Shown: positions 16,249-61,724 of the stretch, one piece after another
Numbering within the stretch: the stretch's first letter is position 1
Layout: each line of letters begins with the position of its first letter
Source: Minisyncoccota bacterium
GTDB taxonomy: Bacteria > Patescibacteriota > Minisyncoccia > UBA9983
DNA length: 64,000 nucleotides
NCBI GenBank assembly: GCA_041648395.1
Contig: JBAZPC010000002.1
Span: 29,181-93,180, forward strand
Direction: 5' to 3'
Program-made: the position numbers and the translations under genes
Notes under the pieces: generated by a model
The model's input: only the letters and a program-made list of their open reading frames with translations
The model's database searches: none
What the model was told of the DNA's origin: nothing

Positions 16249-16302
16249 AATTATGTGTATTTATTATTGGCGTCCGCCCCGTATTAATTTGCCTTAAAAA
16301 TA

Positions 16303-16374
16303 TGCCCCCGCCAGGATTTGAACCTAGAATACGACGTCCGAAGCGTCGCGTGATATCCGTTTCACTACAGGGGC
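16303..16374 (-). tRNA. tRNA-Arg (anticodon TCG)
   Basis: Manual fold: acceptor GCCCCUG/CGGGGGC (one G-U), D stem GUGA/UCAC, anticodon stem CGACG/CGUCG with loop CUUCGGA, T loop UUCAAAU. No encoded CCA. Confidence 0.65.
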
Positions 16375-16388
16375 AAATAATACGGGGT

Positions 16389-17047: not shown

Positions 17048-17063
17048 TATAATTCCAAATTAG

Positions 17064-17134
17064 CGGGGCGTAGTGCAACGGCAGCACGAGACGTTTGGGA
17101 CGTTTTAATCCGAGTTCGAATCTCGGCGCCCCGA
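17064..17134 (+). tRNA. tRNA-Pro (anticodon TGG)
   Basis: Manual fold: acceptor CGGGGCG/CGCCCCG, anticodon stem AGACG/CGUUU with loop UUUGGGA, T loop UUCGAAU. Confidence 0.75.
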
Positions 17135-17147
17135 TTAAATTAAGAGA

Positions 17148-17221
17148 CGGGTTGTAGTATACCGGTAGTACGCGCCCTTCGGGAGGGCGTAGACTGGGTT
17201 CGATTCCCAGCAGCCCGACCA
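17148..17221 (+). tRNA. tRNA-Arg (anticodon CCG), CCA encoded
   Basis: Manual fold: acceptor CGGGUUG/CAGCCCG, anticodon stem CGCCC/GGGCG with loop UUCGGGA, T loop UUCGAUU, 3' ACCA. Confidence 0.75.
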
Positions 17222-17266
17222 ACTTAAACTTTTTTCAAATTCAGCTTCGTTCAGTAATTGCGAAAA

Positions 17267-19453
17267 TTAAAACTTTATTCTTTTGAGGCGGAGGGAGTTT
17301 AGAACCACCGACACCGAGCTGAACGCCATGGCTGCGCCGGCTATCATTGGGTTGAGGAGGATTTTAAAGAAAGGGAAGAGAACGCCCGCCGCCACGGGAA
17401 TTAAAACAATATTGTAAATATACGCCCAAAAAAGATTTTGTTTTATATTTCTTAATGTTTTTCTGGAAAGAAGAATCGCTTTGTAAATTCCCATCGGGTC
17501 TCCTGAAGCCAAAGTGATGCCAGCCGATTCTATGGCAATGTCCGTACCGGTGCCGATGGCAATGCCGATGTCCGCCTGAATGAGCGCCGGCGCGTCATTG
17601 ATGCCGTCGCCGACCATCGCCACAATTTTTCCTTTTTCCTGCAATTCTTTCACCTTCTCTGATTTTTTATCAGGCAAAACGGAAGCCAAAATATTTTTTA
17701 TGCCGACTTTTTCGGCAATGGCTTTTGCTGTTATCTCGTTGTCGCCCGTGATCATCCAAACCTCCATGCCCAGATTATTCAATTTATCAATTGTTTCTTT
17801 TGCCGAGTCCTTCAAGGTATCGGCCAGGCCGATAATTCCCAAGGTTTGTTTTTTATCAGAAAGAATCAAAACGGTTTTGCCTTGGCTTTCCGTATTTTTA
17901 ATTTTTTCTTCAATATCCGGCGCCAGCGCCACATTAAAATCATCCAAAAGTTTTTTGTTGCCAAAAATAAACTCCCGCCCCTCGATTGTTCCGGTAATGC
18001 CCTTGCCAATTATTTCCGAAAAATCCGCAACTTTTTTAAGGGAAATATTTTTTATTTGCGCTTCCATGACAACCGCCTTTGATAACGGATGTGTTGAATT
18101 TTGCGCCAAACTGGCGGAAATTTGCAGAATATCTCCGATAATATCGGTCACCGCCGGCTCGCCCTTTGTTATTGTTCCTGTCTTGTCCAGAACAACGGCG
18201 TTGATACGGCCGGCTGTTTCTAAATATTGCGCGTTCCTGATAAAAATTCCGTTTTCCGCTCCTTTGCCAGTGCCTGTTATGACCGCCACCGGCGTGGCCA
18301 ACCCTAAGGCGCAAGGGCAGGCGACCACAAGAACCGCCACAGCATTAACTAGAGCAAACGTTAAGCGGGGAGCGGGGCCGGCAAAAATCCAAATAATAAA
18401 GGTCAAAACAGAGACAGCCATGACAACGGGAACAAAAAAACCCGTAATTTTATCCGCCAGTTTCTGTATCGGCGCCTTTGTCGCCTGCGCCTCTTCCACT
18501 GTTTTTATAATATGAGAAAGAAAAGTATCTTTGCCAACCTTCAACGCCTTCATTTTAAACACGCCCGCTTTGCTGATGGTGGCGCCTATCACTTCGTTTC
18601 CCTTTTTTTTATCGGAAGGAAGAGATTCTCCGGTAACCATTGATTCGTCAAGAGAAGCGTTTCCTTCAAAAATAATTCCGTCTACGGGAATTTTTTCGCC
18701 TTGTTTTACCAAAAGAATGTCGCCAACCCTCACTTTGTTTATATCTATGTCTTTTATATTTCCGTCAGCGCCGACAAGATGCGCTGTTTTTGCGCCAAGT
18801 TTCAGAAGTTTTTTAATGGCTTCCGAAGCAGCGCCTTTCGCTCTCGCCTCCAAAAATTTTCCCAGCATTATAAAAGTTATAACCACAGCTGAAACATCAA
18901 AATACAGATTAAATCCGAGATTAAAAAGAACAACAGCCGCGCTGAAAAAATATGCCGCTCCTGTGCCAACTGCCACCAGTGAATCCATGCCCGGCCTTAA
19001 ATTTTTAAATTCATAAAAGGATCCTCTCCAAAATTGTGCGCCGACCCAAAACTCCACCGGAGTCGCCAACGCCAAAAGAATCAAGAATGACAAATTTTTC
19101 GGGATAAAAGCGACAGCAGCGCCGCCAAAACTGAGAATAACCGCGATAAGAGAAGCAACAGCGCCGAAAATGAGTTTGTTCCTCAATGTTTTCATTTTTT
19201 TTTCTTCCAACATTTTCGCGTGGTCGTGATGCTCTTCTTCAACTTTATAACCGAGATTTTTAATTTCTTTTATTATCGCTTTTTGATCCATTTCTTTTTC
19301 ATGAGTGAGAAAAAGTTTTTCAGAAACAAGATTAACGCTGGCGCTCTTTACGCCTTCTATTTTTTTTACTACTCCCTCAATGGAAGCCGCGCACGAGGCG
19401 CAATGCATGCCGGAAATTTTTAATGTCGTTTTATTTTCCATAATTTTAATCAA
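17267..19453 (-). CDS. copA: Copper-translocating P1B-type ATPase
   Basis: N-terminal HMA domain (GMHCASCAASIEG), CPC motif in TM6 (ACPCALGLATP), DKTGTIT phosphorylation site and GDGINDAP hinge. Confidence 0.9.
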   Translation of the reverse strand: MIKIMENKTTLKISGMHCASCAASIEGVVKKIEGVKSASVNLVSEKLFLTHEKEMDQKAIIKEIKNLGYKVEEEHHDHAKMLEEKKMKTLRNKLIFGAVASLIAVILSFGGAAVAFIPKNLSFLILLALATPVEFWVGAQFWRGSFYEFKNLRPGMDSLVAVGTGAAYFFSAAVVLFNLGFNLYFDVSAVVITFIMLGKFLEARAKGAASEAIKKLLKLGAKTAHLVGADGNIKDIDINKVRVGDILLVKQGEKIPVDGIIFEGNASLDESMVTGESLPSDKKKGNEVIGATISKAGVFKMKALKVGKDTFLSHIIKTVEEAQATKAPIQKLADKITGFFVPVVMAVSVLTFIIWIFAGPAPRLTFALVNAVAVLVVACPCALGLATPVAVITGTGKGAENGIFIRNAQYLETAGRINAVVLDKTGTITKGEPAVTDIIGDILQISASLAQNSTHPLSKAVVMEAQIKNISLKKVADFSEIIGKGITGTIEGREFIFGNKKLLDDFNVALAPDIEEKIKNTESQGKTVLILSDKKQTLGIIGLADTLKDSAKETIDKLNNLGMEVWMITGDNEITAKAIAEKVGIKNILASVLPDKKSEKVKELQEKGKIVAMVGDGINDAPALIQADIGIAIGTGTDIAIESAGITLASGDPMGIYKAILLSRKTLRNIKQNLFWAYIYNIVLIPVAAGVLFPFFKILLNPMIAGAAMAFSSVSVVLNSLRLKRIKF

Positions 19454-20732
19454 CTACCTCAATTATACCCGATACCATCCCCATCCAACAGCTGAATTTA
19501 TATCTGCCGGGTTTTTGGGGCGTAAACTCTCTCATGGAAATTTCTCCGGGAGATAGTTTTATTTCTCCGTCAAACAAATTTCTCGCTATGACCGCGTTGG
19601 TGCAACCGCTTGTTCCGGTGTCGGTAATTTCCCATCTTACCGGAATGCCCGCTTTTACTTTGAAATAATTTGGTTTGTATCCCGAAGAAGACGCTTCCAT
19701 TTTTATAATCTGCTTCCCGTCAATAATAGACGCCAAATTTTCATTCAAGTTTTTTACTCCCAAGACGTTGAGTTGCGCGTTGATATTATAAAGAGCGAAA
19801 AACAAGACCAAAATTCCGGCAATTTTCATGAATCTTTCCGACCAGCGCGGAATACTTGAAAATTTAACGCTGGAAAAGCCGATGGCCAGCAAGCTAGGCA
19901 AGGTGCCGAGAGAAAACAATCCCATTATCAAACCTCCCTGCAAAGCGCTGCCTGATAAAATCGCCACGCCTTGGGCGGTTAAAGTAAACCCGCAAGGAAG
20001 AAAAAAAGTGAACGCGCCCATAAGAAACGGCGCGCCATGTCCGGGAGGCAGGTGGCCGCCAGCCACCTGCCTTGTCAAAAATTTCGGCATCCTGATCTGG
20101 AATTTCTGGAAAAATTTTATGCCGAGCATTTGCAACGACATTAGAATCATTAGCGCTGAAACAATTATTACAAGAAAAGAAGCTGACTTGAGAGAGAATT
20201 GCAACTTGCCACCCGCGACTCCCAGTAATGCGCCAAAAAAAGAATAAGAAATAATTCTTCCGAAACTAAAAAGCAGATGCGGACGCGGCCCGCTCCATTG
20301 TTTCGCCATGGAAAGAATTACCCCGCCAACCAGCGCCGCACAAGTGGAAAAGCCAGCGGCCAATCCGAATAAAAAGAAAGCAAAGAGAGACGATTTTGCG
20401 TTTATGTTCACCAGAGAAGAAATTCCTGTTTTTCCAATAAGAATAATTCCGGCGACTACAACCGCCGAAATAATTATTATTGACGCAATGCTGTTTTTAG
20501 AGAGATGTTCTTTTTGAAACGGATAGGAAGAGAAAACGTAGCCATTTTCTTTAAAAATTTTATTCAATTTTTCAACAGCAGGCGGAGCACTGTCATATTC
20601 AATTAGAACTTTTCCGTTTGACACGGAAGCGTCCGTCAGTTTCACTCCTTCCATTTCTAAAATTTTTTTTTCAATAAAAATCTCGCACGAGGCGCAATGC
20701 ATACCTTTTACATAATAAACGACTTCCTTCAT
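19446..20732 (-). CDS. Metal-handling membrane protein: N-terminal HMA domain, polytopic membrane core, C-terminal cupredoxin-like domain
   Basis: HMA motif GMHCASCEIFIEK, more than 6 TM helices with Cys-containing segments, and a C-terminus YKPNYFKVKAGIPVRWEITDTG...FSCWMGM resembling a small blue-copper fold. It overlaps copA by 8 bp. The start is ambiguous (TTG at 20768 or ATG at 20732). Confidence 0.5.
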   Translation of the reverse strand: MKEVVYYVKGMHCASCEIFIEKKILEMEGVKLTDASVSNGKVLIEYDSAPPAVEKLNKIFKENGYVFSSYPFQKEHLSKNSIASIIIISAVVVAGIILIGKTGISSLVNINAKSSLFAFFLFGLAAGFSTCAALVGGVILSMAKQWSGPRPHLLFSFGRIISYSFFGALLGVAGGKLQFSLKSASFLVIIVSALMILMSLQMLGIKFFQKFQIRMPKFLTRQVAGGHLPPGHGAPFLMGAFTFFLPCGFTLTAQGVAILSGSALQGGLIMGLFSLGTLPSLLAIGFSSVKFSSIPRWSERFMKIAGILVLFFALYNINAQLNVLGVKNLNENLASIIDGKQIIKMEASSSGYKPNYFKVKAGIPVRWEITDTGTSGCTNAVIARNLFDGEIKLSPGEISMREFTPQKPGRYKFSCWMGMVSGIIEVVD

Positions 20733-20768
20733 AAGAATAATTCTATTCGGTGTGCTAGAATTAAACAA

Positions 20769-21242
20769 ATGGACTCAATGATAAGTAACAATTTGGACAT
20801 ATTTATAAAGCTTTCCGTCGCCATGTTTTTGGGCGTCATTCTCGGTGTTGAAAGAACGGTGGCGCATAAAACCGCCGGCATGAGAACGTACGGATTGGTG
20901 AGTATGGGAGCGGCGCTGTTCGTGGTAATTTCAGAAATGGTTGCCAAAAATTACCTCGGAAATGGCTCCGGAGGAGCCATTTCTTCCGTTGACCCGTTGC
21001 GCATGGCCTCGCAGGTTATCGCCGGCGTTGGCTTTCTCGGCGCGGGCTTGATTATCTTTCAGGAGTCGGGGCAGAGGGTCAGCGGGCTCACCACGGCGGC
21101 GGGGTTGTGGGTTTCCGCCGGCATCGGCATCGCCGCGGGCTTCGGATTTTTCTCTTTGGCAATTTTCGCCGCCGTTCTGTCTCTTTTTGTTTTTACAATT
21201 CTTTGGTTCATCGAGAAAAAAATAAAAGAAATGTCGCAATAA
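20769..21242 (+). CDS. MgtC/SapB-family membrane protein
   Basis: LGVERTVAHKTAGMRTYGLVSMGAALF signature of the MgtC family. The start is trimmed to ATG 20769. Confidence 0.7.
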   Translation: MDSMISNNLDIFIKLSVAMFLGVILGVERTVAHKTAGMRTYGLVSMGAALFVVISEMVAKNYLGNGSGGAISSVDPLRMASQVIAGVGFLGAGLIIFQESGQRVSGLTTAAGLWVSAGIGIAAGFGFFSLAIFAAVLSLFVFTILWFIEKKIKEMSQ

Positions 21243-21330
21243 GATATCCACAAGAATTTTTTAAGAACGCAAAATTTTGTTTCATAAAGAGATAAAATAT
21301 AAGTAGTTTAGATCTTTAAGGAGGTGAGGG

Positions 21331-21555
21331 ATGAAAGAGGGAAAACCGTTTGATTGCGATTATAGAAAAAAACAAGGATACAAAGATATCCACGTAGTTC
21401 CAAAAATAATAAACGGAAAAGAGATCTGCCCCCACACCAAAAATTATGCGTGCAAAAACATAATAAACTGCTCTTTTTATAGCACCCTCTTTGAATCACA
21501 TCTTAGTAGAAGAGATAAAATAATGCACGCCTGCGATTCCTACAACCCCGCTTAA
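21331..21555 (+). CDS. Cys-rich small protein (74 aa)
   Basis: Strong RBS aaggaggtgaggg 5-17 nt upstream, 7 Cys, followed by a hairpin plus T-run terminator at 21556-21580. Confidence 0.35.
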   Translation: MKEGKPFDCDYRKKQGYKDIHVVPKIINGKEICPHTKNYACKNIINCSFYSTLFESHLSRRDKIMHACDSYNPA

Positions 21556-21630
21556 GTGGGGTTGTTTTTTTAATAGGGTTGATCCCGTTAGAGGCAGAGG
21601 CGCTGCGAGCCCTCGCGGCCTCTAATGGGA

Positions 21631-21657
21631 TTGACTTTTGGCCTTAAAAAATATAAT
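21631..21657 (+). promoter_or_regulatory. Sigma70-like promoter TTGACT-N15-TATAAT upstream of the acidic Cys-rich mini-ORF
   Basis: ttgacttttggccttaaaaaatataat, preceded by a nested GC hairpin (agaggc...gcctct). Confidence 0.4.
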
Positions 21658-21667
21658 TTTAAGCATT

Positions 21668-21796
21668 ATGGACGACGATAAAGAAAAGGACGGCTGCGAT
21701 TGCGGTTCATGTCCCGGATGCGGCGCAGATGATGCCAGCGAAACAACCGCCGACGAAAAGGAAGTGGTTGAAACCGAGGACGAAGACGCGGAGTAG
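21668..21796 (+). CDS. Acidic Cys-rich mini-protein (42 aa) MDDDKEKDGCDCGSCPGCGADD...
   Basis: Own translation, not in the ORF track (<60 aa). The CDCGSCPGC cluster suggests metal binding. It has its own promoter and a downstream hairpin cccggcaggaagccggg. Confidence 0.3.
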   Translation: MDDDKEKDGCDCGSCPGCGADDASETTADEKEVVETEDEDAE

Positions 21797-21822
21797 CCAA
21801 AACCCGGCAGGAAGCCGGGCCT

Positions 21823-21893
21823 GCGGGATTAGTTAAATGGTATAATATCAGTTTTCCAAACTGAGGTTAGGAGTTCGATTCCCCTATCCCGCA
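21823..21893 (+). tRNA. tRNA-Gly (anticodon TCC)
   Basis: Manual fold: acceptor GCGGGAU/AUCCCGC, anticodon stem UCAGU/ACUGA with loop UUUCCAA, T loop UUCGAUU (one A-C mismatch in the T stem). Confidence 0.6.
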
Positions 21894-21906
21894 TTTTTTG
21901 GAGTTC

Positions 21907-21984
21907 CCTGCCCGCCATGCGAGCCGCCACGCCCGACTTCGCAAGATGAAGTCGTTGCGGGCGGGCAGGCGAGGCAGGCGGGGA
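21907..21984. repeat. GC-rich palindromic element (CCCGCC...GGCGGG family), nested hairpins
   Basis: cctgcccgcc...ggcgggcagg termini are reverse complements with an inner hairpin. It lies immediately 3' of tRNA-Gly in an otherwise AT-rich genome. Confidence 0.6.
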
Positions 21985-22167
21985 TTCTCCCTGTCCGCAC
22001 CAGACAGGAAAAGTCAAAGAGTTTTGGTTCGCCTCGCTTCGCTCGGCGACTAATTTGTATTGGATTTTGGGGGTAAAAACGAATTGGCGATTCTGCATTT
22101 TGGGGGAAGAAAATTTTTTAATCATAAAGTCGAAATAAATTATTATTAACTATACTATAATGCACAT

Positions 22168-22725
22168 ATGAACAAAACTATTAAATATGCGGGTGTCGCT
22201 GGAATACTTTCTCTAATATTTGTCGTTCCAGTAACGTTTTTTGAAATTCTTAAGAGCTTGAACAAACTTGATGGTGGTTTCACATCGGTATACATTTTTG
22301 TTCTCCTCATATCATTGATTTTGTACATTGTTTTCATACATGGCTTTAAACTTGTTGCGGAAAAATATCAAAATAATTTATTGAGAATATCGTCTTATAT
22401 TTTGATAATTTCTGCCATAGTTTATTACGGCTATTTAGTGCTCACTTTAATTTCTCCAAACCTAGACAATATTGTGATCCAAATTTTGGCCGCAGTAATC
22501 TTTGGAGCAGCAAATATCCCATTCGGGATTGCTTTATTAAAACTAAAGCCACAATTTGGTTCTCTCGCCACTGGTGCAGGCGTTGTAGAAATAATTACAG
22601 GTGTCAGTCTTTTATCGGTTATATTGTCAATCGTTGGAATTTTACTACTCATACCTCTTTATATTTTAACGTCAATGATTTTGTTTCGAGCAGCTAAAAA
22701 AATCGAAACAACTCCAGCAATCTAG
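22168..22725 (+). CDS. Polytopic membrane protein, unknown function
   Basis: 185 aa with about 6 TM helices. Confidence 0.4.
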   Translation: MNKTIKYAGVAGILSLIFVVPVTFFEILKSLNKLDGGFTSVYIFVLLISLILYIVFIHGFKLVAEKYQNNLLRISSYILIISAIVYYGYLVLTLISPNLDNIVIQILAAVIFGAANIPFGIALLKLKPQFGSLATGAGVVEIITGVSLLSVILSIVGILLLIPLYILTSMILFRAAKKIETTPAI

Positions 22726-23040
22726 TTAATCTCTGAATTGCTTTTATTGAATGCCGCCAAAGAAAAACTTGAAATTGTCAGCAGTGCGGCTCCGCCGTCT
22801 TTCCGAATTTTCGCGGGGGGAATTCCTCGCCGCCTGCGGCGAAATGCGTTCGGACTAATTCAAGAATCCCGCATTCAAATCAAAACCTGCAAACAAAATT
22901 TTCCTTGGTGTTCCGCTCTGAACAAGCAGGCGGAGGTTCCCCTAGCTTCACCGCTCGGACGGCGGGGCGGAAGGAGGTTGGGGGAGGAATGGAAATCCAC
23001 AGGGGTTGACTCGTTGTGCTTTCCAGACTTGTGCTATAAT

Positions 23041-23817
23041 ATGAACATTATGGAAATACTTATTTGGCCGATGGTTGGTTTCGTGTTTTTCCTCGTCCTA
23101 TTTGGATTGAGGATAGTTGATCAATATGAGCGCGGAGTTGTGCTTACTCTTGGTAAATACACAGGAACGCGTTCGCCCGGTTTGACGTGGATTCTAATTG
23201 GAATTCAGAAAATGACCAAAGTTGATTTGCGTATCACCACTACCGACATACCACAGCAAGAAGTTATCACAAAAGATAATGTTCCCGTCGGTATCAACGC
23301 GGTAGTATACTTCCAAGTTCAAAATGCCGAGCAGGCTGTTTTAACTATAAAAGATTACACGCTCGCGGTTTCCCAATACGCGCAGGCAGCACTTCGAGAT
23401 GTTATCGGCAGTATTGAACTTGACTCGCTTTTGTCGGAAAGAGAAAAAAATGCCGAAGAAATCCAAAAGATTGTTTCCCAAGCAACGGGGTCTTGGGGTA
23501 TTTTGGTTACTGATATTAAAATCCAAGACATAGAACTTCCAGCAGATATGAAGCGCATCATGGCAAAGCAAGCGGAGGCAGAACGTGAACGCCGAGCAGT
23601 TATCATCAAGGCAGAAGGAGAATTTGCAGCGTCAGAGCGACTTGCTCAAGCGGCTGGTGTCTTAAGTAGTACGCCGGGTGGTATTTCAATGAGAACTCTA
23701 CAAACAATAGAGAAAATAAATCCCGATCCTTCCAAGACGGTTATCTTTGCTTTGCCGGTTGAGTTTTTTGAAGGAATAAAAAGCCTCTCGAAATATTTTA
23801 ATGAAAAACAAAAGTAG
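23041..23817 (+). CDS. SPFH/band-7 (stomatin/prohibitin-like) domain protein
   Basis: N-terminal TM then ...DLRITTTDIPQQEVITKDNVPVGINAVVYFQV...AEAERERRAVIIKAEGEF. The start is trimmed to ATG 23041 because the upstream in-frame stretch is GC-rich noncoding-like. An extended -10 tgctataat sits directly upstream, so the mRNA is possibly leaderless. Confidence 0.8.
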   Translation: MNIMEILIWPMVGFVFFLVLFGLRIVDQYERGVVLTLGKYTGTRSPGLTWILIGIQKMTKVDLRITTTDIPQQEVITKDNVPVGINAVVYFQVQNAEQAVLTIKDYTLAVSQYAQAALRDVIGSIELDSLLSEREKNAEEIQKIVSQATGSWGILVTDIKIQDIELPADMKRIMAKQAEAERERRAVIIKAEGEFAASERLAQAAGVLSSTPGGISMRTLQTIEKINPDPSKTVIFALPVEFFEGIKSLSKYFNEKQK

Positions 23818-23820
23818 TTG

Positions 23821-24630
23821 CTATTTGATTTCTTTCAAAAATCCTTCGATAAGGGCAACTGTCTCATCCGCCTTTTGAAATACTGATTTCCAAATTACAA
23901 CAATATCCGCATCGTTGAAAATTGACCGCTGAACTTCGCGAAGTGTGTCGCCTCCAGCGATAGAGATCATGATGTTGTAATTGCCTTTTATGCGACGAAT
24001 TTCGTGTAAAGGTATTTGTTTTTCCCGATTAAATTTTTCCTCATCTACACCTCGGTGAATAATAACTACAGCCGGAATTTTTTTGAGCGAGCGCAATACC
24101 GATAAAGGAAATTCTACATTCATCATGTCAATCATTGCGTCCAGTCCGCTCTCCTCACATTTTTCCACAAACGAATTGAGGGTTTCTATTGGCGCATTTC
24201 CTAAAGCAATAGCCGCGCTCGCTCCGCCCCTTGCGGCTATCTCAACTTCGGTTTCGCCTCTATCCATTGTTTTCAAATCGGCAACAATGTAGGGAAAAAT
24301 TTCTGTACTATTTTTTGTTGTGGAAGGTGCTGTATTTGTGTTAAAAGCAGTTTGAAAAAGTAACGAGGCTACAGAAATTGAGGACGAAACGGCCGGTGTT
24401 AAAAATTGCCCAGACAAATGCTGTTCGTACCATTGGCGAATTTGCCGTATTCCATGTTCTCCATATCTTTTGATAAGCGGCGTTCCAGCTTCAATAATAA
24501 TTCTGTCGCTTATCGGCAATTGATTGATAATTTCATGAGCGTCCTCAAGCGTACCGTTTAATGCCACTTGCAAATAGCGTTTTTTGGGATTTAACCTATT
24601 TGTTGGTTTGTCAGCCATAGATGGCGTCAT
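23821..24630 (-). CDS. Orotidine-5'-phosphate decarboxylase-family enzyme (3-hexulose-6-phosphate synthase / KGPDC-like)
   Basis: YLQVALNGTLEDAHEIINQLP...IIIEAGTPLIKRYGEHGI matches the HPS/KGPDC signature. The start is trimmed to MTPSMADK (24630) because the upstream in-frame stretch spans the hup terminator. Confidence 0.5.
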   Translation of the reverse strand: MTPSMADKPTNRLNPKKRYLQVALNGTLEDAHEIINQLPISDRIIIEAGTPLIKRYGEHGIRQIRQWYEQHLSGQFLTPAVSSSISVASLLFQTAFNTNTAPSTTKNSTEIFPYIVADLKTMDRGETEVEIAARGGASAAIALGNAPIETLNSFVEKCEESGLDAMIDMMNVEFPLSVLRSLKKIPAVVIIHRGVDEEKFNREKQIPLHEIRRIKGNYNIMISIAGGDTLREVQRSIFNDADIVVIWKSVFQKADETVALIEGFLKEIK

Positions 24631-24714
24631 TATATTAGATTTAGACGAATTTTGCCAATTGTTTCGGTGAAAAAAGAAAAGAAGCCCGCGAGGTAGCCGC
24701 CAGAAAGACATAAA

Positions 24715-59054: not shown

Positions 59055-59075
59055 ATTGTCCGCCCGGCAGGATTC
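59055..59075. repeat. 21-bp direct duplicate of the tRNA-Lys 3' end (attgtccgcccggcaggattc), an att-like site
   Basis: Identical to 60787-60807, which comprises the 3' 17 nt of tRNA-Lys plus 4 nt downstream. Confidence 0.75.
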
Positions 59076-59128
59076 CCCGCCCGCCACGCAAGCCAAGCAA
59101 GCTTGTCTTGCTGGCGTTGCGGGCAGGG
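59076..59128. repeat. GC-rich palindromic element, copy A (cccgcccgccacgcaagccaagcaagcttgtcttgctggcgttgcgggcaggg)
   Basis: Its reverse complement matches 61163-61212 over about 49 nt. It is an internally imperfect palindrome. Confidence 0.75.
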
Positions 59129-59185
59129 AACCTCAAACAAATTACGCCCTCGCTTGGGTTAGCGGATTTTTTACTAATATTTATA

Positions 59186-59404
59186 TTATCTTTCTAGTTT
59201 GTTTATTTCTGCTGGCGATAAAAAATCTTCACACTCCTTTTTTAATTTTTCCTTTATTACATCTAACCCCTTCCATTCCTCGCGAGAAAGAGACAATTGT
59301 TCTTTGTCTTCAGTTTTAGTGGTTATTCTATATGCCCGAGTCCTTTTCTTAATATTTTCCCATTCTTTAAATAATCTTTCGCAATATTCTTGTTTATCTT
59401 CCAT
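59186..59404 (-). CDS. Hypothetical small protein
   Basis: 72-aa charged ORF inside the tRNA-Lys-associated module. Confidence 0.25.
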   Translation of the reverse strand: MEDKQEYCERLFKEWENIKKRTRAYRITTKTEDKEQLSLSREEWKGLDVIKEKLKKECEDFLSPAEINKLER

Positions 59405-59437
59405 AAATTTATTTTACCCTAATAGTAATAAAAAAAA

Positions 59438-59881
59438 TCAGACCATTTCTTTTTTTAGTTTATTGAAACAAATTTTTAGCTTTTCTAAAATAAAATTACT
59501 GCTAATTTGAGGGGGGTTTAATTTAAAATCTAATTTTCCGATTTTGCTAATTCCTAGAATCTTTCCGTGATGGACGCCGAAACACCTATGCCATTGGTAT
59601 ATTTTATTGGCTAAATCTATGTTTATACTAGAATAAGAACTAAGAAAATTTATAAACAATCTTTTTGAAGTTAAGCCGTTTTTAAATCTTGACAAGCCAT
59701 CGATATAACAAAGTGCTAAAATAATCTTTTCTTCTTCGTATTCTCCGCCTATTTTTTCAAGCTGTTTAATTTTAGTTTCATAATTATTAAACCATTTCTT
59801 AATTATTTCTTTGTCTGTCCCGGTCAAAAAACTTTTACGCCACATTCGGAACTCCTCTATATCCTTTTTATTTACTCTCAT
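59438..59881 (-). CDS. Hypothetical protein
   Basis: 147-aa ORF with no recognised motif. Confidence 0.3.
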   Translation of the reverse strand: MRVNKKDIEEFRMWRKSFLTGTDKEIIKKWFNNYETKIKQLEKIGGEYEEEKIILALCYIDGLSRFKNGLTSKRLFINFLSSYSSINIDLANKIYQWHRCFGVHHGKILGISKIGKLDFKLNPPQISSNFILEKLKICFNKLKKEMV

Positions 59882-59898
59882 TGTATTTTACCATTAAC

Positions 59899-60786
59899 TT
59901 AATTTGAAAGTCCGGGAAAAATTATTTGTGCCCTCAAAATTCTCGCCAAAGATTCTACTTTTCCTATTTTTGCAAATGTAGGTATTCCAACATAACAATT
60001 GCCCTTCGGGAAAATAGCTGCACCCCCAGAATTTCCATATTCAATCTTCGCAGAAGTAACATAATAATCTCCTTCGTAACCAGAAATAATACCTTCAGTG
60101 GCAGTAATACCCGTTTCTGTACCTATTCCTGGGTATCCCAATATAACAACACTCTCACCTAAAGAAAGCTGAGTATTACAAACCTGATAGTCGCCTCCTA
60201 TGTTATCAAGATATTTGTCGGGGCTGTTAATTTTGAGAGTTGCCCAGTCATATCCCTGAGACGAAAAAGCAATATTTTCAATAGCTACACTAATAATTTT
60301 GTTATAATTTGGAATTACAATCCTACAAAAATCCGGCCTATAAATAAAATCTTCAAAAACAACATGTCTGTTCGTAATAATACTAACTATAGCATTGTCG
60401 CCATAACCAAAAGTTGATAATATTCCTGAACCACTTTGTATATTGCTACCAAAATTACATTCAACATAAGCTATTTTATTTTTCCACTGTCGGATTATGT
60501 CCGGCAAATCATTTTTTGGTGTCTGCGCTTCTTTAATTATCGTTTTTTGAATAATTTGTGGTTTCTGATTTTTTAGCACCTCTACTTCTTGCCTTAACTT
60601 TTCAACTTCTAAGTCTTTCAGTCGTTGTGTTTCTTGTGCTATTTTTTCTTTCTCAATTTTTTCTGCTTGATATTTTTGGTATTGTTTAATACTAAAATAT
60701 CCTCCACCGCCCAAAACTAAAACGCCCGCAATGATTGCGATTAATATTGGTATTTGAATAAAACCTTTTTGATTTTTAATTCTCAT
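59899..60786 (-). CDS. Membrane-anchored trypsin-like (S1/S1-like) serine protease
   Basis: N-terminal TM plus coiled coil, with a C-terminal ...GYPGIGTETG...GNSGGA motif (the catalytic Ser context). Confidence 0.6.
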   Translation of the reverse strand: MRIKNQKGFIQIPILIAIIAGVLVLGGGGYFSIKQYQKYQAEKIEKEKIAQETQRLKDLEVEKLRQEVEVLKNQKPQIIQKTIIKEAQTPKNDLPDIIRQWKNKIAYVECNFGSNIQSGSGILSTFGYGDNAIVSIITNRHVVFEDFIYRPDFCRIVIPNYNKIISVAIENIAFSSQGYDWATLKINSPDKYLDNIGGDYQVCNTQLSLGESVVILGYPGIGTETGITATEGIISGYEGDYYVTSAKIEYGNSGGAAIFPKGNCYVGIPTFAKIGKVESLARILRAQIIFPGLSN

Positions 60787-60790
60787 ATTG

Positions 60791-60863
60791 TCCGCCCGGC
60801 AGGATTCGAACCTGCGACCCTCTCCTTAAAAGGGAGCTGCTCTACCAACTGAGCTACGGGCGG
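60791..60863 (-). tRNA. tRNA-Lys (anticodon TTT)
   Basis: Manual fold: acceptor CCGCCCG/CGGGCGG, D stem GCUC/GAGC, anticodon loop CUUUUAA, T stem GCAGG/CCUGC with loop UUCGAAU. Confidence 0.75.
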
Positions 60864-60868
60864 ATAAG

Positions 60869-61129
60869 TTACACTTCTGGAAGTATTTTTAATTTTAATC
60901 TATTTTTTAAAAATCTTCTACCAAATCCTGTCTTGAAATATTTCTCTCTTTTTAATGCTGATTGTTTATCTAAACACGCTTCATAATAAACTAATTCTAA
61001 TGGCCATCTATTTTTTGTGGCATCAACTAATCCATTACTATGTTCAATAAATCTTTGTTTCAGGTTTTCACTAAAACCAATGTAAAATTTTTTATCTTTT
61101 TGACTTTGAAGAATATACGTGTAAAACAT
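60869..61129 (-). CDS. Stand-alone GIY-YIG nuclease-domain protein
   Basis: FYTYILQSQKDKKFYIGFSENLKQRFIEHSNG...ELVYYE. The start is trimmed to MFYTY (61129) because the upstream in-frame extension is the GC palindromic element. Confidence 0.75.
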   Translation of the reverse strand: MFYTYILQSQKDKKFYIGFSENLKQRFIEHSNGLVDATKNRWPLELVYYEACLDKQSALKREKYFKTGFGRRFLKNRLKLKILPEV

Positions 61130-61162
61130 TAATTTTTTAAAAATAAATGACCAACTGACCGC

Positions 61163-61212
61163 GCCCGCAACGCCAGCAAGACAAGCTTGCTTGGCTTGCG
61201 TGGCGGGCGGGG
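61163..61212. repeat. GC-rich palindromic element, copy B (inverted relative to copy A)
   Basis: cccgcaacgccagcaagacaagcttgcttggcttgcgtggcgggcgggg is the reverse complement of 59079-59127. Confidence 0.75.
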
Positions 61213-61229
61213 CTACGGGCGGAATTTTT

Positions 61230-61724
61230 TTAAGTGTGCCGATCCGCCAAAACAAACGCGCTGTATGAGTCCGGTTTTATGATTGCCTCAAAGCCGAACC
61301 CTTTCACCATTCCCACCATGCCGTCAATGAAATCCTTGGTCGGGCCGTTTTTTCCCACATCAAGATGAACTTTTATTTTATTATTCCAAAAGAACTCCTC
61401 TCCTAATTTATCTTTTAATCTGCTTTTCAATTCCTGTACAAAAGTGATGGAATGCATTGTCTCTTTGTAAATCCTGTCGCGCAGGGTGGGGCAAAAAACT
61501 TTTTCCGTTTTTGACCAGAAATATCTTCCGCCGTTGCCGACTCTCAAAATGGCGATAGCTGTGACAAATTGAGTTTCGTTGGAACCTTGGGAATCGGAGC
61601 CGACGGTGATTTTGTATTTTGCCTCCGGCTTTTGATTGATATAATTTGCGATTTCCTCAATCAGTTCATCGAATTTGATGTGGCGTTTTAATGTTTCGTT
61701 GTAAAACTTTATATTATCAGACAT
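61230..61724 (-). CDS. DUF458/YkuK-like RNase H-fold protein (tentative)
   Basis: ...KITVGSDSQGSNETQFVTAIAILRVGNGGRYF... resembles the YkuK family. Confidence 0.4.
   Translation of the reverse strand: MSDNIKFYNETLKRHIKFDELIEEIANYINQKPEAKYKITVGSDSQGSNETQFVTAIAILRVGNGGRYFWSKTEKVFCPTLRDRIYKETMHSITFVQELKSRLKDKLGEEFFWNNKIKVHLDVGKNGPTKDFIDGMVGMVKGFGFEAIIKPDSYSAFVLADRHT

Follow-up and report, generated by a model that had tools for sequence, protein, structure and literature searches.

A probable csoR-less copper-export operon and an adjoining clade-specific microprotein module between tRNA genes of a Patescibacteria genome

In the copY-cupA-copA operon of Streptococcus pneumoniae, the gene of a membrane-attached cupredoxin chaperone for Cu(I) lies directly upstream of copA, and this chaperone, CupA, has the ligands C74, C111, M113 and M115 and hands Cu(I) to CopA (PMC5646241). 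Here we analysed a locus of comparable arrangement in a metagenome-assembled genome of Candidatus Paceibacterota (candidate phyla radiation (CPR)/Patescibacteria), using a 64-kb stretch of contig JBAZPC010000002.1, hereafter the window. Between tRNA genes, this stretch carries copA, a gene for a fusion protein with copper-binding domains, mgtC, and two small open reading frames (ORFs) of 74 and 42 codons, here called orf74 and pep42, all of which were found where an earlier sequence-only reading had located them. That reading had taken the segment for a metal-homeostasis island acquired horizontally at tRNA genes; its view of the gene content as metal-related is borne out by copA and the copper-domain fusion (Pfam, TIGR01511). 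We lean towards a different history, in which the segment is not an acquired island and would consist of an ordinary, vertically inherited copper-export operon and an adjoining clade-specific module. tRNA genes were called with ARAGORN and Rfam, protein domains with Pfam and NCBIfam, and structural homologues by sequence search of the PDB.

The two genes of the operon lie on the minus strand. copA (17267-19441, or to 19453) encodes 724 amino acids (aa) counted from ATG, with HMA (E=6e-15), E1-E2_ATPase and Hydrolase domains in Pfam and a score of 608 bits against NCBIfam TIGR01511 (cut-off 397). Its translation contains the N-terminal HMA motif GMHCASC, CPC, DKTGT, YN (YNIV) and MxxSS (MAFSS), and by these features the product is a P1B-1 Cu(I)-exporting ATPase. 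copA starts 4 nt past the stop codon of the fusion gene (19446-20732), and the two genes may be translationally coupled in what we propose to be an ancestral, vertically inherited operon. The fusion protein (428 aa) begins with an HMA domain carrying CxxC, continues with about seven transmembrane segments of the DsbD_2/CcdA-like type and ends in a CupA-like cupredoxin domain, and its Pfam matches to HMA, DsbD_2 and Cupredoxin_1 each exceed the cut-off (DsbD_2, PF13386: 106.8 bits versus 24.9; Cupredoxin_1: 35.2 bits versus 27). Cys residues of the membrane helices stand in STCAAL and LPCGF. In phmmer searches, the cupredoxin domain matched the metal-binding domain of pneumococcal CopA (PDB 4F2F, E=1.9e-7) and CupA (4F2E/2MRY, E=4.2e-6), and SGC...FSCWMGM of the fusion aligns with the Cys and CxMxM Cu(I) ligand positions of 4F2F/CupA. 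The domain is thus predicted to be a CupA-type cupredoxin with a Cys + CxMxM binuclear Cu(I) site. Taken together, the protein would have a CopZ-like HMA domain in the cytoplasm, a membrane domain that carries thiols in the manner of CcdA/DsbD, and a cupredoxin of the CupA type that binds Cu(I). Transmembrane counts and topology were obtained by a crude hydropathy scan with the positive-inside rule, which predicted seven helices and placed the N terminus inside and the CupA-like domain outside the cell.

To place this protein among its relatives, one genome per species was scanned, which gave 205 stretches, and the best 80 loci, nearly all of them from Patescibacteria, were fetched. The fusion had been described as unusual, a label that does not fit for this phylum, with relatives in 205 genome stretches and copA nearly always following in the 80 loci kept (same strand, ~70 of 80). 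A csoR-like gene of 90-102 aa lies directly upstream of the fusion gene (~30-300 nt) in about 60 of the 80, and its identity was confirmed for the copy of locus L044 (PF02583, E=3e-17). In Patescibacteria, the order csoR, fusion, copA therefore seems to be that of the standard copper operon. No tblastn match to csoR was found in the 64-kb window and none at the site in close relatives, and the operon of the window is, by its gene content, a csoR-less variant of this standard operon. The position that csoR holds in most relatives is occupied in the window by the divergent mgtC; in the distant relative L005, the fusion gene is preceded by csoR, a sigma-factor-like gene and a gene for a 122-aa membrane protein, where the window has mgtC, orf74 and pep42. 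A brief literature search found no paper describing the csoR-fusion-copA arrangement or specific to the fusion protein.

The likeness to the S. pneumoniae operon extends from the chaperone-type gene directly upstream of copA to the aligned Cys + CxMxM ligands and, in most Patescibacteria relatives, to a metal-sensing repressor gene upstream. There are, however, clear differences. The pneumococcal CupA has one anchor helix, whereas the CupA-like domain here is joined to HMA and a DsbD_2 part of about seven helices, so that a single N-terminal anchor with a cytoplasmic CupA domain is not what is found, and by the crude prediction the domain faces outward, differing from CupA. The N-terminal domain of the window CopA is of the HMA type and that of S. 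pneumoniae CopA of the cupredoxin type; the Patescibacteria repressor, missing in the clade of the window, is of the CsoR type and the pneumococcal one of the CopY type. The membrane part resembles CcdA/DsbD thiol-disulfide carriers in its DsbD_2 match and its two membrane-helix Cys, but unlike them it sits between two copper-binding domains, in a cop operon, with no thioredoxin-like partner domain.

The segment is bracketed by tRNA genes, two of which had been read correctly: tRNA-Pro (anticodon UGG, 17064-17134, plus strand; ARAGORN, and 61 bits in Rfam) and tRNA-Gly (anticodon UCC, 21822-21894, plus strand; ARAGORN, Rfam), the latter followed by TTTTTT at 21895-21900. The supposed tRNA-Arg at 17148-17221 (plus strand) is instead a second tRNA-Pro, with anticodon CGG (ARAGORN, Rfam), which adjoins the 3' end of copA both here and in distant relatives; a tRNA-Arg(tcg) does exist at 16302-16375 on the minus strand, outside the segment. 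Integration of an island between tRNA genes would account for the tRNA flanks, for the variable presence of the copA-fusion pair between relatives that are very close, precisely at tRNA-Pro(cgg), from which it is missing in L086 and L087 (tRNA-Pro(cgg), then mgtC directly), and for a gene content from tRNA-Gly to the fusion gene that is unlike that of distant relatives. It is at odds, however, with the composition, which is normal: compared with 53 ORFs of the window that have 120 aa or more, copA, fusion and mgtC have z-scores below 2 in magnitude throughout (GC content +0.60, +0.45 and +1.40; GC at third codon positions of mgtC +1.85; codon-usage distance between -1.8 and +0.4), copA ranking with the most typical genes of the window. 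The 3' ends of tRNA-Gly and tRNA-Pro each occur only once in the window with up to 3 mismatches allowed, giving no att-like repeat, and a Pfam scan found no integrase domain within the segment. Gene order also speaks against integration. The fusion gene, copA, tRNA-Pro(cgg), the gene of the CCA-adding enzyme and tRNA-Arg(tcg) follow one another in L011, L034 and L044 as in the window, while L005 matches the window block from the fusion gene as far as the CCA enzyme and resembles it again on the other flank (RNase Y, HU, tRNA-Gly(tcc)), at a protein identity to the window of ~50-59% in these syntenic relatives. Because the same gene order recurs in distant relatives, the bracketing tRNAs are best seen, at the level of synteny, as part of an old tRNA-rich housekeeping block. 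The synteny is not complete, in that the old block is shared with distant relatives but copA and the fusion gene are absent from L086 and L087. This absence is best read as loss, since L088 carries the same 6-nt pep deletion as L086/L087 and yet retains the cop genes, and since the copA-tRNA-Pro(cgg) adjacency and the whole block from RNase Y to the CCA enzyme are conserved in distant relatives; copA and fusion are present with the same flanks in L083, L088 and the distant relatives. Horizontal acquisition at the tRNAs is, on this evidence, very unlikely, and a vertically inherited operon next to a clade-specific module is the reading that we carry forward.

The module consists of mgtC, an orf74-family gene, pep (the pep42 family) and tRNA-Gly(tcc), and would stand at the position held by csoR in most relatives. 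It was recovered in this order in all seven distinct loci, namely the window, L083 (with L084 and L085), L086, L087, L088, L089 and L090, with the tRNA-Gly interrupted in L089 and L090. The clade is narrow, as judged by the 85-91% identity of MgtC between the window, L083 and L086. L086 and L087 retain the complete module without copA and fusion at the site, and the module accordingly seems not to depend on the cop genes, whether these were lost or gained. mgtC (20769-21242, plus strand, start by alignment to relatives) encodes an MgtC/SapB-like membrane protein of 157 aa (PF02308, E=3e-35; 121.6 bits, cut-off 31.4) that comprises the membrane domain only and scores under the NCBIfam equivalog cut-offs. 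It diverges from the fusion gene, with start codons 36 nt apart, and its ratio of nonsynonymous to synonymous substitution rates (dN/dS) is 0.05-0.11. Just past its stop codon, at 21244-21252, stands ATATCCACA, an 8/9 match to the DnaA-box consensus TTATCCACA, which is conserved in L083 and L086 and differs by one base in L090. In L089 (101-1658), mgtC is apparently split into gene calls of 117 aa and 95 aa, and between mgtC and the orf74 homologue stands a gene of 290 aa that has a weak Bro-N domain match.

orf74 (21331-21555, plus strand; 21320-21555 with its Shine-Dalgarno sequence GGAGGTGA at 21320-21327) is preceded by a strong Shine-Dalgarno sequence, GGAGGTG, in all seven copies and ends in an intrinsic terminator with a 10-bp stem and a T-run (21542-21572, plus strand; terminator scan), which is present in relatives wherever downstream sequence was read. 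The protein is basic (pI 9.0), 63-74 aa long in the family, with C9, C33, C41 and C47 invariant in the seven copies and C68 and H66 kept in five of them. Its dN/dS of 0.38-0.50 is well above that of mgtC. A word-indexed search of 5.8 billion proteins matched only orf74 itself, and an exhaustive HMMER search of 1.84 billion representatives returned one true relative (P0003) and one spurious match; Pfam, NCBIfam and PDB sequence searches, metal-protein families included, gave nothing above threshold, and the AlphaFold2 (AF2) model is unusable (mean predicted local distance difference test, pLDDT, 44). On these comparisons orf74 is taken to be a real, fast-evolving orphan gene.

pep42 (21668-21796, plus strand) encodes an acidic microprotein of 42 aa with the CDCGSCPGC motif that had been reported from the sequence. 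It contains 18 Asp and Glu residues, has a net charge of about -15, and has neither a hydrophobic segment nor a signal peptide. The family comprises seven distinct sequences of 39-42 aa that start with M[DN]DDK, share an invariant CDCGSCPGC and end their acidic tail in AE. A single-sequence homologue search retrieved only pep42 itself, whereas a profile search retrieved five further clusters, all of the same clade; no small ORF with a C.C..C..C-type motif in the other 80 Patescibacteria loci resembles it, and Pfam, NCBIfam and PDB sequence searches, metal-protein families included, gave nothing above threshold. The AF2 model has a pLDDT of 57 and no secondary structure, as expected of a metal-dependent or disordered peptide. 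Both small ORFs are conserved in relatives, the seven distinct loci of one narrow clade, together with their expression signals (Shine-Dalgarno sequence, terminator, promoter), which supports the sequence-only reading on this point. Its remark that they are too small for standard annotation does not hold, as both are called on public contigs (pep42 as the NCBI hypothetical protein WC587_00940), and its term Cys-rich overstates the case for proteins with 5 Cys among 74 residues and 4 among 42.

Three other forms or roles of pep42 were considered and rejected. A 52-aa form starting at TTG was set aside, as L083 has TCG in place of this codon and a gene with such a product is not on record. This form gave a weak match to the FeoB-associated Cys-rich membrane proteins (PF12669; E=0.006, 17.2 bits, under the cut-off of 27), which falls away because the TTG-extended form is not conserved; the true 40-42-aa forms score E=0.4-0.9. 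pep42 shares with that family a very small size and a Gly/Cys-rich motif, but it is under the cut-off, has no transmembrane helix and has no feoB gene nearby. A precursor of a ribosomally synthesized and post-translationally modified peptide was rejected, as the gene lists show no maturase or transporter gene nearby. Attenuation by way of Gly codons that tRNA-Gly(UCC) would decode was rejected as well, the only GGA codon being GGT in two relatives.

The signals around pep42 connect it to the tRNA downstream. A promoter, TTGACT (21631-21636)-N15-TATAAT (21652-21657), spans 21631-21657 on the plus strand, and TTGACT-N15/16-TATAAT follows the orf74 terminator, with both hexamers conserved, in six of the seven loci. 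The distance from the -10 box to the pep ATG is 10 nt in four loci (the window and three relatives), 8 nt in one and 24 nt in L086, where a 14-nt duplication caused the longer spacing; no Shine-Dalgarno sequence was found before pep. The tandem duplication of L086 (ttttaatcattatg, within 1293-1352, between promoter and pep) also creates, 5 nt ahead of the pep start codon, an out-of-frame mini-ORF of two codons (ATG TTT TAA). The same geometry is found at tRNA promoters: the -10 box of tRNA-Pro(tgg) in the window (TATAAT, 17048-17053) ends 10 nt before the tRNA, a -10 box ends 9-10 nt before the product also at the L005 genes for tRNA-Gly(tcc), which has no pep gene, and tRNA-Gly(gcc), and 9-10 nt is the commonest -10-to-tRNA distance among 17 promoter-like sites upstream of the 79 tRNAs in these loci. 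Because the -10-to-ATG spacing matches that of tRNA promoters, the arrangement suggests that pep42 is nearly leaderless and co-transcribed with tRNA-Gly, in the leader of the tRNA-Gly transcript. Between the orf74 terminator and the promoter, the window carries a near-perfect hairpin insertion of ~60 nt (21575-21638, plus strand; -40.7 kcal/mol, z -6.8) whose 3' arm overlaps the -35 box; none of the six relatives has this insertion, and the window contains no second copy of it.

Downstream of pep42, a GC hairpin without a T-run (21803-21819, plus strand, -12.6 kcal/mol) abuts the 5' end of tRNA-Gly. The sequence-only reading had given pep42 a promoter and a terminator of its own; the promoter sequence is confirmed, but the hairpin, lacking a T-run, was not listed by the terminator scan. 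The gap from the pep stop codon to tRNA-Gly measures 25-46 nt across loci, and every locus has one or two GC hairpins in it, of differing sequence and -12.6 to -27.3 kcal/mol (consensus-structure alignment of the spacer was too poor, and folds were made per sequence). No T-run follows these hairpins in any of the 7 loci, and a T-run or terminator occurs only past the tRNA. The transcript of pep42 probably has tRNA-Gly as its 3' part. Rfam recognized only tRNAs in the region, with a chance-level microRNA match for the hairpin at 21564-21657. We propose that pep42 is transcribed from a promoter of tRNA-Gly-promoter geometry as a nearly leaderless mRNA running into tRNA-Gly, that the hairpin between its stop codon and the tRNA may protect the 3' end of the mRNA, and that RNase P would separate the two by cutting at the 5' end of the tRNA. 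Protein-coding genes that share transcripts with tRNA genes include Escherichia coli tyrT-tpr and tufB, the latter downstream of four tRNAs. pep42 resembles them in lying on the same transcript as a tRNA gene, as predicted, but it is upstream of the tRNA and starts where a tRNA 5' end normally sits, hence its near-leaderless form. A literature search found nothing specific on peptide genes in tRNA leaders, and this probable peptide gene inside a tRNA transcription unit is the most interesting element of the locus. The tRNA-Gly itself varies in two relatives: in L090 (1088-1370), the tRNA-Gly(UCC) after pep is split in the anticodon loop (5' half 1088-1121, 3' half from ~1333) by an insert of ~210 nt that holds a complete second tRNA-Gly(tcc) at 1199-1269 and matches no Rfam intron family, and the same split is apparently present in L089 (2193-2243).

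The simplest objection to a peptide gene here is that pep42 is not translated at all, being the structured 5' leader of the tRNA-Gly precursor in which an ORF arose by accident of GA-rich sequence. The tRNA-promoter geometry and the missing Shine-Dalgarno sequence would fit such a leader, as would the other frames and the antisense strand, which are also largely stop-free, and the window-L083 pair, in which pep42 has a synonymous distance (dS) of only 0.14 (mgtC 0.84) and a dN/dS of 0.92. The pattern of change across the family argues for translation instead. Over the whole alignment, variable columns number 16, 10 and 26 at the first, second and third codon positions, and 5, 2 and 13 over the first 24 codons, which make up the N-terminal and Cys part; indels measure 3, 3, 6 and 9 nt, all multiples of three whether or not they are independent events; codons for Cys and Pro show synonymous changes only; start and stop codons (ATG at the start) are conserved; and pairwise ratios of nonsynonymous to synonymous differences (pN/pS) are 0.10-0.93, mostly 0.2-0.5. 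An untranslated leader is in our view unlikely, and both small ORFs are, on this comparative evidence, translated genes. For the function of pep42, the comparison starts from short proteins and sites such as SmtA/BmtA, MymT and the N-terminal CxxCGC nickel site of HypB, in which short, closely spaced Cys motifs (CxC, CxxC) provide thiolate metal sites. No sequence similarity to these was found; the 4 Cys among the 42 residues of pep42 (9.5%) form one cluster, the 5 Cys of orf74 are dispersed, neither matches a metallothionein family, and metallothioneins are not marked by a long acidic tail such as that of pep42. Nor does either look like an HMA/CopZ metallochaperone, with no HMA match in Pfam or NCBIfam and the low pLDDT of both models. 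Our best guess is that pep42, which we picture as disordered and very acidic, serves in the cytoplasm as a tetrathiolate peptide that binds metal. Its one tetracysteine site, CDCGSCPGC, most likely takes up a single soft metal ion or a small cluster (Zn, Cu(I) or Fe-S) with its four thiolates, and the basic protein encoded by orf74 may act with it.

A serious rival, given that mgtC co-occurs in seven of seven loci whether copA and fusion are present or not, makes the microproteins partners of MgtC or of another non-metal process (a redox-active CxxC, an acidic-tail mimic) and not metal carriers. In Salmonella, MgtC is under the control of the small peptide MgtR, the pairing of a basic orf74 protein with an acidic pep42 suggests a complex, and CPGC of pep42 resembles a thioredoxin-type CxxC motif. 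MgtR, however, is hydrophobic whereas pep42 is soluble and acidic, pep42 is a separate transcription unit past the orf74 terminator, the interaction is hypothetical, and an invariant four-Cys cluster is most simply a metal site, which leaves this explanation doubtful but deserving of attention. We give less weight to the possibility that pep42 was born in the tRNA-Gly(UCC) leader and forms with orf74 a thiol metal-sensing or buffering pair that replaced the lost CsoR in copper control, an idea that we regard as improbable. Another origin is suggested by the fusion homologues, of which ~55 of 80 end in a low-complexity linker and a Cys-rich tail (..SGAxGCGCGGGG..SCG.. or GGSCGxNGxCGCGG), whereas the window fusion ends right after the cupredoxin domain: pep42 could be a free-standing version of this tail (..GCGCGG..C..), which the fusion of the clade lacks and whose core GCGCGG resembles GCDCGS of pep42. 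Against this, the ~22 other homologues without a tail, from other lineages, show no pep-like ORF in their vicinity, the tail comes after a domain predicted to be extracellular (7 transmembrane segments) while pep42 has no signal peptide, and pep42 is kept in L086 and L087, where the fusion gene is absent; topology and distribution both disfavour a detached tail, to which we give hardly any credence.

Several observations weigh against the preferred account, of an inherited copper operon beside a module that encodes a metal-binding peptide in a tRNA transcription unit. The module of L086/L087, without copA and fusion, weakens the case for a dedicated copper role. No homologue of known function was found for orf74 or pep42 in the searches made. 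We infer metal binding from the Cys motif of pep42, and likewise infer its transcription start, its co-transcription with tRNA-Gly and the RNase P processing from the sequence. The promoter spacer of 15 nt is suboptimal, and L090 has no promoter at this position. The low window-L083 dS hints at an extra nucleotide-level constraint on pep42, and the transmembrane count of the fusion derives from a crude hydropathy scan.

Outside the segment, the real variable spot of the neighbourhood appears, from the comparison of loci, to be the stretch from tRNA-Gly to HU (window 21895-24711). It holds orf185 (low GC), a Band_7 gene and a gene for orotidine 5'-monophosphate decarboxylase in the window, nothing in L083, a 91-aa gene in L086 and a 402-aa gene in L088. 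Directly past tRNA-Gly lies a GC-rich palindromic element (21895-22060, -76.8 kcal/mol, z -3.8), and a 98-aa minus-strand ORF called by the gene finder (21829-22125), which overlaps the element and tRNA-Gly, is probably spurious. What looks like a genuine tRNA-associated insertion, a contrast to the copper segment, is found at 59-61 kb (59055-61212). The ARAGORN call 'tRNA-Stop(tta)' at 60790-60863 (minus strand) is a mis-called tRNA-Lys(UUU) and not a suppressor tRNA, because a standard 5-bp stem gives the anticodon loop CUUUUAA. The last 18 nt of this tRNA-Lys and 3 nt more (60787-60807) are repeated exactly at 59055-59075, and between the two repeats lies a low-GC segment of 1.7 kb (GC 0.29-0.34) that holds genes of 147 aa and 295 aa, the latter for a putative trypsin-like protease. 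The arms of a perfect inverted repeat of 50 nt stand at 59075-59124 and 61163-61212, and the ORF at 60869-61255 is putatively GIY-YIG-like.

The above analyses suggest that tRNA bracketing alone is a weak signal of an island in tRNA-dense CPR genomes, which matters for annotation. orf74 and pep42 are clean cases of young, clade-restricted genes with strong coding evidence, whose narrow spread limits their wider importance, and pep42, if the transcript model is true, would be an example of a peptide gene using a tRNA promoter. How the pneumococcal CupA is kept reduced has been left open (PMC5646241), and the joining of a CcdA-like thiol carrier to a CupA-like domain in the fusion protein of these Patescibacteria suggests a way in which such a chaperone may be kept reduced.

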